Shown here piece after piece: positions 8,949 to 59,579 of a stretch of DNA of 64,000 nt. The stretch's first letter is position 1. Each line of letters begins with the position of its first letter. The position numbers were made by a program, and so were the translations under genes. The notes beneath the pieces are model-generated. The model had not been told where the DNA came from. It was given only the letters and a program-made list of their open reading frames with translations, and did not search any database. The DNA lies in the NCBI RefSeq assembly GCF_053078305.1, contig NZ_CP166879.1. One strand, written 5' to 3'.

Positions 8949-9317
8949 GTCGACAGGGAGTCAGACAACGAAGTGAACATCAGGATGATGACACTTCTGA
9001 AGGACACACCAGGATGGTGTTTCAGGGAAAGGCTTCTGGATGAAGCGAAGAGGATGACGCAGGACGCGTTAAAGGACACCTCCAGGATGGAGAATGAGAA
9101 CCGGTCAGGATGATCCGGTGGGTCAGGAAGGCCAGGGACACTTCAGGATGAAGTATCACATCGGGGTGGTGTGAGCAGGAAGCAATAGTTCAGGATGAAC
9201 GATTGGCCGCAAGGCCAGAGGAAAAGTTGTCAAGGATGAGCAGGGAGCAACAAAAGTAGCTGGAATGCTGCGAAACGAACCGGGAGCACTGTGAATACAG
9301 TGCTCCCTTTTTTTATT
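8949..9317 (+). ncRNA. csrB: CsrB small RNA (CsrA-sequestering)
   Basis: About 370 nt non-coding stretch with many CAGGATG / AGGA(T)G GGA-motifs spaced every 15-30 nt; ends in hairpin GGGAGCACTG...CAGTGCTCCC plus T7 run at 9282-9314. Confidence 0.92.
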
Positions 9318-31307: not shown

Positions 31308-31499
31308 TTAAACATTTATAAGCGTTATAAATGGGTGGAACCTGTAAAGACTTCTACTCATTTATATTCTTTGTCGTCTCTGAAAAACCTCCATTTTGCC
31401 CATCCTGAACTAATCATTATCATTCTCTACAAATTCTGTGGCGTTAATTTTTCACTGGAGTGAAAATTATTGCGGTAAAGTTTGGTAGATTTTAGTTTG

Positions 31500-31645
31500 T
31501 ATAGAGTTATTTTAAATATTTACCTTTTTAATCAATGGGTTAAGTGCTCTTTAACATAATGGATGTGTTGTTTGTGTGATACTGTAAAGTTGGTAGATTG
31601 TGACTGGCTTAAAAAATCATTAATTAATAATAGGTTATGTTTAGA
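31500..31645 (+). promoter_or_regulatory. CRISPR leader for array 2
   Basis: AT-rich; contains AGTTGGTAGATTGT motif 44 nt upstream of first repeat, shared with the cas-adjacent leader. Confidence 0.8.
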
Positions 31646-32528
31646 GAGTTCCCCGCGCTAGCGGGGATAAACCGTAATGAGTCAGGGGAATACCGAATAT
31701 TTTATAGAGTTCCCCGCGCTAGCGGGGATAAACCGAAATTTATCGAGATCGGCAGGGGTTACTGACAGAGTTCCCCGCGCTAGCGGGGATAAACCGGCCG
31801 TTAATCCGGACTGCCAGCGAATAACGCTGAGTTCCCCGCGCTAGCGGGGATAAACCGCAACATATTTAAACGATTTAAGCCAGGCATATGAGTTCCCCGC
31901 GCTAGCGGGGATAAACCGGGATTCATCACGCGGTTATCCGGGGGCCGTTAGAGTTCCCCGCGCTAGCGGGGATAAACCGGTGGTTGCGGGGTTATCGGTG
32001 GTAGTCACAATGAGTTCCCCGCGCTAGCGGGGATAAACCGCTCCAGCTCGATATCACACGACGCTATATCAGGAGTTCCCCGCGCTAGCGGGGATAAACC
32101 GGAAACAGCGCCCGCCGGTGCTGCGTTACCGTGGAGTTCCCCGCGCTAGCGGGGATAAACCGCCAACAAACTCATTTGCACTGGATTCGTGGATGAGTTC
32201 CCCGCGCTAGCGGGGATAAACCGACCGGCGCAATTGTTTTTCAGCAGCACCCGGCGAGTTCCCCGCGCTAGCGGGGATAAACCGTATTTTCTTTGTTGCG
32301 GTAGGCAATATCGCCAGAGTTCCCCGCGCTAGCGGGGATAAACCGGTATTTTGTCACGACCAGCACGAGGCCGAATAGAGTTCCCCGCGCCAGCGGGGAT
32401 AAACCGCCCCAACTCATGCCCACATGAAAAACGTTGACGAGTTCCCCGCGCCAGCGGGGATAAACCGCCGCAAAAGGTATTATTTTTATCCGTCAGTACG
32501 AGTTCCCCGCGCCAGCGGGGATAAACCA
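31646..32528 (+). CRISPR. CRISPR array, 15 repeats of 29 bp, 14 spacers of 32 bp (type I-E repeat)
   Basis: Exact 61-bp periodicity; 12 repeats GAGTTCCCCGCGCTAGCGGGGATAAACCG then 3 leader-distal repeats with CCAGCG loop; terminal repeat ends ...AACCA. Confidence 0.97.
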
Positions 32529-32996
32529 CCATATAACCCGTTATCTCTTTCTCAAGTTTTTATATTAGCTGTACTTGTAATAAGCAACATATCCACGTAA
32601 CACCTCATGTTCAAAATAGTTCCCCATGCCAGATAAGTTCACAATTATCGATACAAAAAATCAAATTTAATCAAAGTGTTATTTGTATAATCCTTAAACC
32701 GTTAAGAAATTTTAATATATTATTTTTTTAATATTAATTAATGCCTGTTAATTTTTTCTTTAGAATAACAGTGTATTTTTTAAGCTTGTTATTCATTGAT
32801 TAAGTAATAAATCTGGAAATTTGTCTTTGTTTTGAGGCTAATGAGTGGTTTTACATAACCGCCTCTATACGCTGTTGATGAATAGTTCTTATGAATAAAG
32901 ATATCCTGTTCATACTTTAAGTGAAAATTGATAAAGTGCGATTCGTATTGTCTTTTATTCTAAAGACATCGAGTGTAGTTAATATTCCTTGTAAAA

Positions 32997-33119
32997 ACAG
33001 GGATAAACCGAACTAGTTAAAGTTTTTATTATGTTCCCTGCATCAGCGGGGATAAACCGGACTTGTTATCATTTTTTAAGTTGTCGAACTTATGTTCCCC
33101 GCGCCAGCGGGGATAACCA
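32997..33119 (+). CRISPR. Vestigial CRISPR remnant (degenerate repeats)
   Basis: Partial repeat GGATAAACCG at 33001, ATGTTCCCTGCATCAGCGGGGATAAACCG at 33031-33059, ATGTTCCCCGCGCCAGCGGGGATAACC at 33092-33118; another fragment near 32617-32637. Confidence 0.7.
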
Positions 33120-48959: not shown

Positions 48960-49223
48960 ATATTGCCGGATAAATTAAACGCCTCTGTCAGAAATGATGG
49001 GGGCGTTTTTATTTTGCGAGCAGCATTCCTGATTTTAAACGTGAACGCCGCTGGAAGAATTAACAGGTATAGAATGGTGTTGGGTGCTTGAGGCTGTCTG
49101 GCGTTAAGCATTCGCGAGGTTCCAGATGGACAAAAGCCCCAGGCGATATTTCTATCAACCTGAGGCCAGCGTTCGAACCTAAGCAATTCGAATGTTAGTC
49201 TCTTCTTTGCAGGGAGGCAAGAC

Positions 49224-49376
49224 ATGCTGACAAAATATGCCCTTGTGGCAATCATCGTACTGTGTTGTACAGTACTGGGATTCACGCTGATGGTAGGCGA
49301 CTCGTTGTGTGAGTTGAGTATCAGAGAACGTGGTATGGAGTTTAAGGCTGTTCTCGCTTACGAATCGAAGAAGTAG
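49224..49376 (+). CDS. hokX: Hok/Gef-family type I toxin (probable hokX)
   Basis: 50-codon ORF, not in the ORF track because under 60 aa; hydrophobic N-terminal TM segment plus conserved Hok C-terminal pattern (LCEL..R...EF.A.LAYESK); followed by a hairpin. Confidence 0.65.
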
Positions 49377-49568: not shown

Positions 49569-52268
49569 ATGCGTAAATATCCTTTAAGTTTACTGAAGGA
49601 TAAAAATATTGTGACTTTCTTTGATTTCTGGGGAAAAACCCGACGCGACGAGAAAGAAGGGGGTGACGACTATCACCTTCTTTGCTGGCATTCGCTGGAT
49701 GTGGCCGCGATGGGCTATTTAATGGTTAAAAGAAATTGCTTCGGGCTGGCTGATTATTTTCGTCAATTAGGGATTTCTGACAAGGAACAGGCGGCTCAAT
49801 TTTTCGCCTGGTTGTTGTGCTGGCACGATATTGGAAAATTTGCCCGCTCATTTCAGCAACTTTACCTGCACCCACAACTCAAGGTTCTGGAAGGCGCAAG
49901 AAAGAATTACGAAAAGATCTCTCATTCAACGCTGGGCTACTGGTTGTGGCATCATTATTTAAGTGAATGCGAAGAATTGCTTCCTGCCTCTTCACTCTCT
50001 ACTCGCAAACTTAAACGTGTAATAGCGATGTGGATGCCCATGACTACCGGGCATCATGGTCGGCCCCCTGACCGTATTGATGAACTGGATAATTTTCTGC
50101 CTGAAGACAAAGCTGCCGCACGAGATTTTCTCCTTGAAATCAAGTCACTGTTTCCGCTCATAGAGATTCCCACATTCTGGGATGATGACGAGGGCGTTGA
50201 ACTTTTAAAACAACTTTCCTGGTATATCTCTGCAACAGTCGTACTCGCAGACTGGACGGGTTCGTCAACGCGATTTTTTCCACGCGTCGCACAGACAATG
50301 AATATTAAAGATTACTGGCAGAAAACTTTAGTTCAGGCTCAAAACGCCTTAACCGTCTTTCCTCCAAAAGCAGAAACCGCACCTTTCACCGGAATTAATA
50401 CGCTGTTTCCTTTTATTGAGCACCCGACACCATTACAGCAAAAGGTACTGGATCTGGATATCAGCCAGCCAGGGCCACAGTTATTTATTCTGGAAGATGT
50501 GACTGGCGCAGGTAAAACAGAAGCGGCGCTTATCCTGGCGCACAGGTTGATGGCTGAGAATAAAGCTCAGGGTTTGTTTTTTGGCCTGCCAACAATGGCA
50601 ACGGCCAATGCCATGTACGATCGGCTGGTCAAAACCTGGCTTGCTTTCTTTTCGCCAGAATCCCGCCCCAGCCTGGTGCTGGCACACAGCGCCCGTACAT
50701 TAATGGAACGCTTTAATGAATCACTCTGGTCCGGTGATTTAGTCGGGTCAGAAGAACCGGATGAACAAGCGTTCAGTCAAGGATGTGCAGCCTGGTTTGC
50801 CGACAGTAACAAGAAGGCTTTACTGGCTGAAATTGGCGTCGGCACGCTGGATCAGGCGATGATGGCAGTGATGCCGTTTAAACATAATAATCTGCGGCTT
50901 CTGGGGTTGAGTAACAAAATCCTGCTGGCTGATGAGATCCACGCCTGTGACGCTTACATGTCGTACATTCTTGAAGGGTTGATTGAGCGACAGGTGCGTG
51001 GCGGAAACAGCGTCATTTTGCTTTCTGCTACGTTATCTCAACAGCAGCGCGACAAACTTGTCGCCGCCTTTGCGCGTGGCACAGAGGGCCAGCAAGAAGC
51101 TCCGTTCCTGGAAAAGGATGATTACCCCTGGCTGACGCATGTCACGAAATCCGATGTGCATTCGCACCGGGTAGCGACGCGCAAAGACGTTGAGCGTAGC
51201 GTGAGCGTGGGTTGGCTTCATAGCGAACAAGAATGTATTGCGCGTATCGAATCAGCGGTAAGTCAGGGGAAATGCATCGCCTGGATCCGGAATTCTGTCG
51301 ATGACGCTATTAAGGTTTATCGTCAGTTACTTGCCCGCGGCGTCATTCCTGCTTCCAGCCTTTCACTTTTTCATAGCCGCTTTGCTTTTAGCGATCGCCA
51401 GCGAATTGAAACGGAAACGCTGGCACGCTTTGGTAAAAATTGTAGTTTAAAAAGATCATCTCAAGTCATTGTTTGTACACAAGTAATTGAGCAAAGTGTG
51501 GATATTGACCTGGACGAAATGATCTCCGACCTGGCCCCCATTGATTTGCTGATCCAGCGAGCGGGGCGATTACAACGGCATATTCGTGATATTAATGGTC
51601 AGTTAAAACGTGATGGAAAAGACGAGCGTTCCCCTCCTGAATTGCTGATTCTGGCCCCCGTCTGGGACGACTCTCCGGGTGACGAATGGTTTGGTAGTGC
51701 GATGCGTAACAGCGCATATGTCTACCCCGATCATGGGCGAATCTGGCTGACGCAGCGAGTATTGCGTGAGCAAGGCGCTATTCAGATGCCACACGCAGCC
51801 CGGCTTCTTATTGAATCCGTCTACGGTGAGGACGTGGTAATGCCGGAAGGATTTGCCCGCAGCGAGCAGGAGCAAGTGGGCAAATATTACTGCGATCGCG
51901 CAATGGCTAAAAAGTTTATGCTGAACTTCAGGCCCGGCTATGCCGCCAATATCAACGATTACCTCCCGGAAAAGCTGTCGACACGTCTGGCTGAAGAGTC
52001 TGTTTCCCTGTGGCTGGCTACCTGTATTGACGGTGTGGTGAAGCCTTATGCCAGCGGTGCTCACGCATGGGAAATGAGCGTTGCCAGAGTGCGTCGAAGC
52101 TGGTGGAAAAAACATCGGGATGAATTTTCTTTACTGGAAGGGGAAGCGTTCAGGCAGTGGTGCATTGAACAACGGCAAGATCCGGAGATGGCAAACGTGA
52201 TTTTAGTCACCGATGACGAAAGCTGCGGGTATTCGGCTACGGAAGGATTGATTGGCAAGGTTGATTGA
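49569..52268 (+). CDS. cas3: Cas3 HD nuclease / helicase (type I-E)
   Basis: 899 aa; HD motifs (HSLDVAA, HDIGK), Walker A (GAGKTEAA), DEAH-like box (LADEIHACD); preceded by AT-rich promoter region. Confidence 0.92.
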   Translation: MRKYPLSLLKDKNIVTFFDFWGKTRRDEKEGGDDYHLLCWHSLDVAAMGYLMVKRNCFGLADYFRQLGISDKEQAAQFFAWLLCWHDIGKFARSFQQLYLHPQLKVLEGARKNYEKISHSTLGYWLWHHYLSECEELLPASSLSTRKLKRVIAMWMPMTTGHHGRPPDRIDELDNFLPEDKAAARDFLLEIKSLFPLIEIPTFWDDDEGVELLKQLSWYISATVVLADWTGSSTRFFPRVAQTMNIKDYWQKTLVQAQNALTVFPPKAETAPFTGINTLFPFIEHPTPLQQKVLDLDISQPGPQLFILEDVTGAGKTEAALILAHRLMAENKAQGLFFGLPTMATANAMYDRLVKTWLAFFSPESRPSLVLAHSARTLMERFNESLWSGDLVGSEEPDEQAFSQGCAAWFADSNKKALLAEIGVGTLDQAMMAVMPFKHNNLRLLGLSNKILLADEIHACDAYMSYILEGLIERQVRGGNSVILLSATLSQQQRDKLVAAFARGTEGQQEAPFLEKDDYPWLTHVTKSDVHSHRVATRKDVERSVSVGWLHSEQECIARIESAVSQGKCIAWIRNSVDDAIKVYRQLLARGVIPASSLSLFHSRFAFSDRQRIETETLARFGKNCSLKRSSQVIVCTQVIEQSVDIDLDEMISDLAPIDLLIQRAGRLQRHIRDINGQLKRDGKDERSPPELLILAPVWDDSPGDEWFGSAMRNSAYVYPDHGRIWLTQRVLREQGAIQMPHAARLLIESVYGEDVVMPEGFARSEQEQVGKYYCDRAMAKKFMLNFRPGYAANINDYLPEKLSTRLAEESVSLWLATCIDGVVKPYASGAHAWEMSVARVRRSWWKKHRDEFSLLEGEAFRQWCIEQRQDPEMANVILVTDDESCGYSATEGLIGKVD

Positions 52269-57269: not shown

Positions 57270-57273
<4 letters not shown>
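56623..57273 (+). CDS. cas6e: Cas6e/CasE, crRNA endoribonuclease
   Basis: ATG at 56623 after AGGAGG RBS, 216 aa starting MYLSRI...; overlaps cas5 end by 19 nt; ORF track shows only a longer upstream-extended frame. Confidence 0.85.
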
Positions 57274-58483
<1,210 letters not shown>

Positions 58484-58579
58484 GTTATGTGTTCTTTAAA
58501 AATAAGGAAATGTTTGAATTTAGTTGGTAGATTGTTGATGTGGAATAAATTTGTTTAAAAACAGATATGTATGCTTAGT
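58484..58579 (+). promoter_or_regulatory. CRISPR leader for array 1
   Basis: AT-rich, contains AGTTGGTAGATTGT at 58522-58535, 45 nt upstream of first repeat. Confidence 0.8.
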
Positions 58580-59579
58580 GTGTTCCCCGCGCCAGCGGGG
58601 ATAAACCGGGGGGGCAATAATATGTGCGGCGGATCACCAGGTGTTCCCCGCGCCAGCGGGGATAAACCGTCGGAAAAATGGCTGGCCTCAACGGTGAAAA
58701 CGTGTTCCCCGCGCCAGCGGGGATAAACCGCCAGGGTGAAACTTTTCGCTGACGTAAATAAAGTGTTCCCCGCGCCAGCGGGGATAAACCGACAATCACA
58801 TATACGACGCGAGACGGAGATCGGTGTTCCCCGCGCCAGCGGGGATAAACCGTGATGGGCGAATACAAGCGCTGGCGCAACGAGGTGTTCCCCGCGCCAG
58901 CGGGGATAAACCCGGCATTCTTAACCGGCGCAACAAGGGGGGCGCGTGTTCCCCGCGCCAGCGGGGATAAACCGGTTAACTCCAGGTGGCGCGGCAGTGT
59001 TCAGAAGTGTTCCCCGCGCCAGCGGGGATAAACCGTGCTCTCATTTGTGTCGGCATCACTCGCGTCGGTGTTCCCCGCGCCAGCGGGGATAAACCGTCTG
59101 CCGCGAGCTGGTCTACGCCTACGCCATGGTGTTCCCCGCGCCAGCGGGGATAAACCGACATATGCCACAACCAGGCGAAGAAAAGTGTTCCCCGCGCCAG
59201 CGGGGATAAACCGCCCGTCACCGACGCGCAGTGGCGCTACCGTGAGTGTTCCCCGCGCCAGCGGGGATAAACCGGTCGCTGGGTTATTTTGTGTTGTGGG
59301 GCGATCGTGTTCCCCGCGCCAGCGGGGATAAACCGCTCATATTCGGATTGATCGTGTGTTTCGGTTTGTGTTCCCCGCGCCAGCGGGGATAAACCTGCGT
59401 ATATCTGTTGATGCGCACGGCGTGGCGGGTGTTCCCCGCGCCAGCGGGGATAAACCGAATGATTTAATACCAGACGCAGAGTGCCACACGTGTTCCCCGC
59501 GCCAGCGGGGATAAACCGGGCGCACTGGATGCGATGATGGATATCACTTAGAATTCCCCGCCCCTGCGGTAGAACACCC
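58580..59579 (+). CRISPR. CRISPR array, 17 repeats (GTGTTCCCCGCGCCAGCGGGGATAAACCG), 16 spacers
   Basis: 61-bp periodicity except one 56-bp unit (27-nt spacer at 59158-59184); degenerate terminal repeat GAATTCCCCGCCCCTGCGGTAGAACACCC at 59551-59579. Confidence 0.97.

Follow-up and report, generated by a model that had tools for sequence, protein, structure and literature searches.

A 14-nucleotide motif shared by two type I-E CRISPR leaders of Escherichia coli very probably corresponds to the known leader upstream element

The system closest to the one described here is the type I-E leader of Escherichia coli as studied in the laboratory. A leader of 60 bp is sufficient for spacer acquisition and one of 40 bp is not, and the −10 box positioned from −61 to −66 can be deleted without effect on acquisition (Yosef 2012, PMC3384332). 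Mutations of the K-12 leader at −34 to −45 or at −58 to −69 were tolerated, and mutation of the segment from −46 to −57, called CBS2, abolished acquisition in vivo and led to the loss of both the supershifted complex and the integration product in vitro (Yoganand 2017, NAR 45:367, PMC5224486). The CBS2 mutation left IHF binding and bending unaffected, and within CBS2 only the central GTGG at −50 to −53 was essential; this tetranucleotide received the name integrase anchoring site, or IAS (Yoganand 2017, PMC5224486). The IHF site occupies −9 to −35 of the leader according to a 2023 review (PMC10011333). A passage of that review, which cites Nunez 2016, Yoganand 2017 and Wright 2017, states that IHF bending causes an upstream element at −50 to −55 to touch Cas1-Cas2. 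Passages in two more papers describe the Wright 2017 integration-complex structure in the same terms, with IHF bending bringing the upstream motif to Cas1.

The motif in the two leaders

The window, by which we mean the whole 64-kb stretch of DNA that was analyzed, is E. coli chromosome with a type I-E CRISPR-Cas locus. The genes upstream of array 1 are ordered cas3-cse1-cse2-cas7-cas5-cas6e-cas1-cas2, and Cas1 of the window matches E. coli Cas1 structures, including 5WFE and 5VVJ-L, with E=4e-174. The repeats of both arrays are canonical I-E 29-mers. Repeat 1 was set to a common register for the two arrays (G[T/A]GTTCCCC..., starting at 58580 and 31646), in which the features are as follows.

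49569-52268: cas3, first gene of the cas operon
57270..58193, plus strand: cas1, type I-E, the integrase subunit, with 84% amino-acid identity to K-12 Cas1
58190..58483, plus strand: cas2, type I-E, with 85% identity to K-12 Cas2
58522..58535, plus strand: motif AGTTGGTAGATTGT at −58 to −45 in the leader of array 1 (cas2-adjacent, CRISPR2.1, leader-A type)
58523-58534, plus strand: CBS2 within the array 1 motif, in the register of Yoganand 2017
58526-58530, plus strand: core GGTAG in the array 1 motif, with the IAS-equivalent GTAG at 58527-58530
58575..58608, plus strand: integration site of array 1, TTAGT (−5 to −1) followed by repeat 1 GTGTTCCCCGCGCCAGCGGGGATAAACCG
58580..59579, plus strand: CRISPR array 1, 17 repeats of GTGTTCCCCGCGCCAGCGGGGATAAACCG, the last degenerate
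31588..31601, plus strand: motif AGTTGGTAGATTGT at −58 to −45 in the leader of array 2 (cas-distal, CRISPR2.3 type)
31592-31596, plus strand: core GGTAG in the array 2 motif
31641..31674, plus strand: integration site of array 2, TTAGA (−5 to −1) followed by repeat 1 GAGTTCCCCGCGCTAGCGGGGATAAACCG
31646..32529, plus strand: CRISPR array 2, 15 repeats, 27 kb from array 1

The window holds two exact copies of AGTTGGTAGATTGT, at 58522-58535 and 31588-31601, and no further match with two or fewer mismatches was found in it (0.22 expected from shuffles). The gap between the motif and repeat 1 is 44 nt in both leaders. A preliminary description of this DNA had located the first copy correctly and placed the second at 31589-31602, which is one base off. 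It had also stated that the two copies lie at the same distance from repeat 1, which holds, although the values given there, 45 and 44 nt, become 44 and 44 in the common register. Chance alone would yield about 15 identical 14-mer pairs in 64 kb, and such a pair is hence not rare per se. The ungapped identity of the two leaders is 21/44 at −1 to −44 and 8/42 at −59 to −100, and the flanks of the motif are only 34-48% identical; at this flank-level identity, a 14/14 run would arise with a probability of 2e-5 to 3e-3. The significance of the motif is its occurrence at the same register in otherwise differing leaders, not the mere identity of two 14-mers. The divergence that the preliminary description assigned to the rest of the leaders is borne out by these figures but is not complete. 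Near the junction, 8 of the 10 bases at −10 to −1 are common to both leaders, and a second upstream block, TAATCAATrGGTTAwGTGyTCTTTAA..., is 36/42 identical and includes a perfect IHF consensus. The two leaders are present in 4089 and 4559 of 5426 E. coli genomes.

Comparison with K-12 MG1655 identified array 2 as the CRISPR2.3 homologue, on the queE side, with a leader that agrees fully (100%) with that of K-12 CRISPR2.3 from −1 to −58. The repeats and leader of K-12 CRISPR2.3 are in turn identical to those of the BL21-AI array whose leader was truncated (Yosef 2012, PMC3384332). Array 1 corresponds to CRISPR2.1, next to cas2; its repeats are "A-type" and its leader is "leader-A", as in the cas-E variant of which O157:H7 is the typical example. 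At the register of the motif, the K-12 CRISPR2.1 leader, called "leader-T", has GGTTGGTGGGTTGT, which agrees with the window motif at 11/14 positions; at the IAS, K-12 CRISPR2.1 reads GTGG where both leaders of the window read GTAG.

Several further observations were made on the arrays and their surroundings. At the −10 box position of the CRISPR2.3 leader (31580-31585) the window strain has TACTGT and K-12 has TACTAT; this change, one of the few differences between the array 2 leader and that of K-12, might weaken transcription of array 2. The repeats of array 2 begin with GAG ("T-type"), and those of K-12 CRISPR2.3 with GTG. Repeats 1-12 of array 2 carry the loop variant GCGCTAGCGGGG and the three leader-distal repeats the canonical GCGCCAGCGGGG, which fits an origin of the variant in repeat 1 followed by its copying with each later acquisition. 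One spacer of array 1, at 59158-59184, is 27 nt long in place of the usual 32 (repeat spacing 56 versus the usual 61). Three degenerate I-E-like repeats at 32980-33116, about 450 bp 3′ of array 2, correspond to the CRISPR2.2 remnant, which K-12 has in the equivalent position too. Elsewhere in the window, Rfam matches were obtained for the CsrB sRNA (8958-9317, 384 bits) and for a sok-type antitoxin RNA (49082-49239, 112 bits), the latter about 330 bp 5′ of the cas3 start.

Conservation and assignment of the motif

Type I-E loci of other species were gathered through Cas1 and not through the motif, so that circularity was avoided. Cas1 of the window was aligned with that of K-12, and the alignment served as the query against one genome per species, which yielded 80 loci, mostly from Gammaproteobacteria; at 70 of the 80 an I-E array begins about 90-100 nt after cas2. 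After leaders with 85% identity or more had been removed, 56 non-redundant leaders were anchored at the leader-repeat junction without gaps, and the information content was determined at each position. Three peaks were seen, corresponding to the junction (T−5 92%, A−3 89%, G−2 98%), the IHF core (C−18 92%, A−17 96%, T−10 94%, A−9 80%, with an A-tract at −34 to −31) and the motif. The 5′ part of the motif peak consists of T−56 (78%), T−55 (76%), G−54 (91%), G−53 (96%) and T−52 (91%), and its 3′ part of R−51 (91%), G−50 (83%), A−49 (78%), T−47 (82%) and T−45 (92%). GGTRG starts exactly at −54 in 44 of the 56 leaders and within 1 nt of that position in 48. GGTR was found near −54 in every leader except that of the betaproteobacterial Parasutterella (55/56), and in a gapped alignment GGT is invariant in 57/57 sequences. 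Both window leaders have the core GTRG at −53 to −50 in the context yGGTRGA. The core is thus kept in register in 55/56 leaders from other species, and a lack of conservation in other I-E leaders, which the preliminary description had named as evidence against its reading, was not seen.

Two of the loci, L004 (JAEWTL010000035.1) and L078 (JAIJJM010000114.1), lie on short contigs whose Cas1 is 99% identical to that of E. coli, in metagenome-assembled genomes labelled Bacillota and Collinsella. The L004 leader has the same 14-mer, and its −1 to −90 region is identical. These contigs are most likely mis-binned E. coli.

The region between the motif and repeat 1 was inspected for the IHF site.

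58545..58571, plus strand: proximal IHF-site region of leader 1, −35 to −9, positions from PMC10011333
31611..31637, plus strand: proximal IHF-site region of leader 2, −35 to −9, identical to the K-12 CRISPR2.3 leader

In leader 2 the 13-mer TAATAATAGGTTA at −21 to −9 (31625-31637) agrees with the IHF consensus at 7/9 positions. The corresponding 13-mer of leader 1, AAACAGATATGTA (−21 to −9, 58559-58571), agrees at 6/9 when counted by hand, which is under the scan cut-off of at least 7/9, and it retains C−18, A−17, T−10 and A−9, the bases kept across species. A candidate IHF site is therefore placed between the motif and repeat 1 in both arrays, with the weaker evidence in array 1.

The register of the motif, −58 to −45, when set against −57 to −46 for CBS2 and −53 to −50 for the IAS, means that the 14-mer contains all of both. 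The window leaders also agree with the class of upstream motifs in position, core, intervening IHF site, cognate integrase and conservation across species. We conclude that the 14-mer is very probably the type I-E leader upstream motif, that is CBS2 with the IAS at its center. The motif is a real, functional and already known element, and an ordinary feature of such a leader. The suggestion of the preliminary description that it is an integration-site determinant for Cas1-Cas2 is thus upheld: it covers CBS2 and the IAS, which are required in E. coli, it falls within the leader DNA that separates the sufficient 60 bp from the insufficient 40 bp, and it is conserved in 55/56 leaders. Element, position and mechanism were all published in 2016-2017, so the assignment brings nothing new to the field, and the survey across species is a re-confirmation of motif conservation only.

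By analogy with the E. coli leaders of the literature, the motif would be required for acquisition independently of IHF binding, and it would be contacted by Cas1 in the IHF-bent complex, as has been reported for its counterpart. We infer that the leader-A copy at 58522 behaves like those leaders. In the mechanism that we envision, IHF would bind the leader at about −35 to −9 and introduce a sharp bend. The bend would fold the DNA around −50 to −55 back onto Cas1-Cas2 at the leader-repeat junction, where a Cas1 subunit would touch the motif. This added contact, always equally far from repeat 1, would stabilize the complex on the first repeat only, so that new spacers would enter next to the leader and the other repeats would be spared. 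The motif would in this way explain both the entry of new spacers at the leader end and how one Cas1-Cas2 integrase recognizes the first repeat of two separate arrays; its distance is the same in both, as we see it, because the single Cas1-Cas2 encoded at 57270-58483 uses both as substrates. Since junction bases, IHF site and upstream motif, the full complement of leader signals, are present in each array, both are probably competent for acquisition. One published result suggests a less strict requirement. A reporter with 43 bp of leader-A, carried on a high-copy plasmid and put under positive selection, took up spacers by means of its cognate Cas1-Cas2. Because only 43 bp of leader-A were present, the reporter lacked the motif, and since it still acquired spacers, the motif may be an aid to efficiency or specificity rather than an absolute requirement everywhere.

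Alternative readings of the motif

The preliminary description had also offered IHF as the protein that recognizes the motif, and there is a weak 7/9 match to the IHF consensus WATCAANNNNTTR on the minus strand over it (AATCTACCAACTA, 58521-58533). Matches of 7/9 are, however, frequent in these AT-rich leaders, and the best conserved bases of the motif, G−54 and G−53, land on N positions of the consensus. The mapped IHF site lies at −9 to −35, between the motif and the repeat (PMC10011333), which leaves the motif upstream of it, and the CBS2 mutant is still bound and bent by IHF (Yoganand 2017, PMC5224486). On these grounds the identification of the motif as an IHF site was rejected; we consider it very unlikely that the motif is itself bound by IHF. 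Another possibility is that the motif has no function and is a leftover of common ancestry, the product of gene conversion between the leaders, or a chance identity. The leaders are homologous and have a second conserved block in common, and identical 14-mers are, as calculated above, no rarity in 64 kb. Against this stand the low probability of a 14/14 run at the identity of the flanks (2e-5 to 3e-3) and the presence of the core in register in 55/56 leaders from other genera, with flanks that cannot be aligned, which together make an absence of function highly improbable.

A different proposal is that the motif serves mainly as an element of the pre-crRNA promoter, either as the start and initial transcribed sequence or as an extended −10 element, given that TGGTAGATT reads TGnTAnnnT. 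The relevant hexamers, at the position of the −10 box mapped in the literature, are the following.

58514..58519, plus strand: TTGAAT at the mapped pre-crRNA −10 box position of leader 1, −66 to −61
31580-31585: TACTGT, the array 2 equivalent of the −10 box

The published −10 box at −61 to −66 and a start about 50 nt 5′ of repeat 1 would put the start inside the motif; with the usual spacing of about 7 nt from a −10 box at −66 to −61, we would expect it near G−54. The fit of TGGTAGATT to the extended −10 pattern, together with TAnnnT at −52 to −47 in 25 of the 56 leaders, also speaks for a promoter. However, A−51, the essential second position of the hexamer, is present in 57% of the leaders and replaced by G in 34%, among them K-12; the bases with the highest conservation, G−54, G−53 and G−50, are not required by a −10 element; and the hexamer at −66 to −61 is not conserved across species. 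Scans with the sigma-70 consensus detected no promoter at the motif. Moreover, mutations of CBS2 or the IAS block integration with purified proteins, where there is no transcription (PMC5224486), and removal of the −10 box spares acquisition (Yosef 2012, PMC3384332). A promoter element as the main identity of the motif is therefore improbable, with only a slim chance of being correct. Because the motif overlaps the start region of pre-crRNA and reads TGnTAnnnT, a contribution to transcription is conceivable, and a secondary transcriptional role is possible in some leaders; −10 function would leave the conservation of the motif unexplained. A start near −54 would give an RNA beginning with GGUAGAUUGU, and one could envision that the motif acts in this RNA, where it would fold or bind a protein at the 5′ end of the leader transcript of pre-crRNA. 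When 57 sequences of leader plus repeat were folded to a consensus, the repeat hairpin was the only structure, supported by covariation, and the motif was unpaired. Rfam gave no family match in either leader, and integration in vitro needs the DNA motif with no RNA present (PMC5224486). The reading at the RNA level was rejected in view of the fold and the Rfam result, and its likelihood is close to nil.

Upstream leader DNA and comparison with known systems

A second perfect IHF consensus is located 5′ of the motif in each window leader, AATCAATAGGTTA at 58475-58487 and AATCAATGGGTTA at 31530-31542; that of array 1 straddles the cas2 stop codon. A distal site with at least 8/9 consensus positions is found in 43/56 leaders of other species (10% in shuffles). 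It occurs at registers of 39-40, 49-51 or, in array 2 of the window, 62 bp 5′ of the GGTR core, steps that are approximately one helical turn apart. The distal site is not needed for basal acquisition, because a 60-bp leader suffices. Immediately downstream, at 58488-58500 and 31543-31555, is the block (G/A)yTCTTTAA(A/C)AA, which is conserved at most of the loci L004-L083. This block follows the distal IHF-like site and shifts with that site rather than with the motif, and it overlaps the expected −35 region of the published K-12 pre-crRNA promoter.

Farther upstream, the cas2 coding sequence contains GGTGGATTTG at 58429-58438, part of the codons for PVDLDG, which matches the cross-species consensus of the motif core, GGTGGATTT. 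It lies about 150 bp 5′ of repeat 1 and has a degenerate counterpart, TTGGTAGATTTT, at 31481-31492. GGTGGATTTG is not spaced from the distal IHF site as the motif is from the proximal one, and the likeness of GGTGGATTTG to the motif core is probably a coincidence or a result of coding constraint. MAFFT paired GTTTGGTAGATTTT (31479-31492) with CCGGTGGATTTGG of cas2. The DNA 5′ of the array 2 leader was considered as a possible remnant of the cas2 3′ end, and this was rejected, as local alignment and shuffles support only a 42-nt block, which takes in the cas2 stop codon and the distal IHF consensus.

A more elaborate arrangement can be envisioned. In leaders with A−51, which include both window leaders, TGGTAGATT might double as an extended −10 element and start, in which case RNA polymerase and the integration complex would compete, and the phased distal IHF site might set the architecture. 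If this is true, then competition of RNA polymerase with IHF-Cas1-Cas2 for one DNA would couple transcription of the array to the uptake of spacers. We think that such a dual use is rather unlikely.

Taken as the upstream motif of type I-E leaders, the 14-mer resembles most closely the IAS/CBS2 of the E. coli I-E leader (Yoganand 2017, NAR 45:367; Wright 2017, Science 357:1113). Organism, system and register are the same, as is the order of repeat, IHF site and motif; the difference is that the K-12 CRISPR2.1 leader that was mutated has GTGG and the window leaders have GTAG. The IHF site of the I-E leader (Nunez 2016, Mol Cell 62:824), at −9 to −35, is another part of this integration-site determinant, and polarized acquisition depends on both, but it is a separate element, with the 14-mer located upstream of it and not needed for IHF binding. 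The leader motifs of types I-F and I-C (Santiago-Frangos 2021, Curr Biol; 2023 preprint 10.1101/2023.05.26.542337) follow the same logic, in which a distant motif reaches the integrase through the folding of the leader by IHF. Their motif sequences and spacings are subtype-specific and unlike those of type I-E, and type I-F has two IHF bends, inverted-repeat motifs and Cas2/3. A further likeness, drawn by Yoganand 2017 (PMC5224486), is to the arm-type sites of phage lambda attP in the intasome with IHF. The lambda enzyme belongs to an unrelated family, the tyrosine recombinases, and the DNA sites are unrelated, yet there too a protein that bends the DNA brings a remote site within reach of a second surface with which the recombinase binds DNA.
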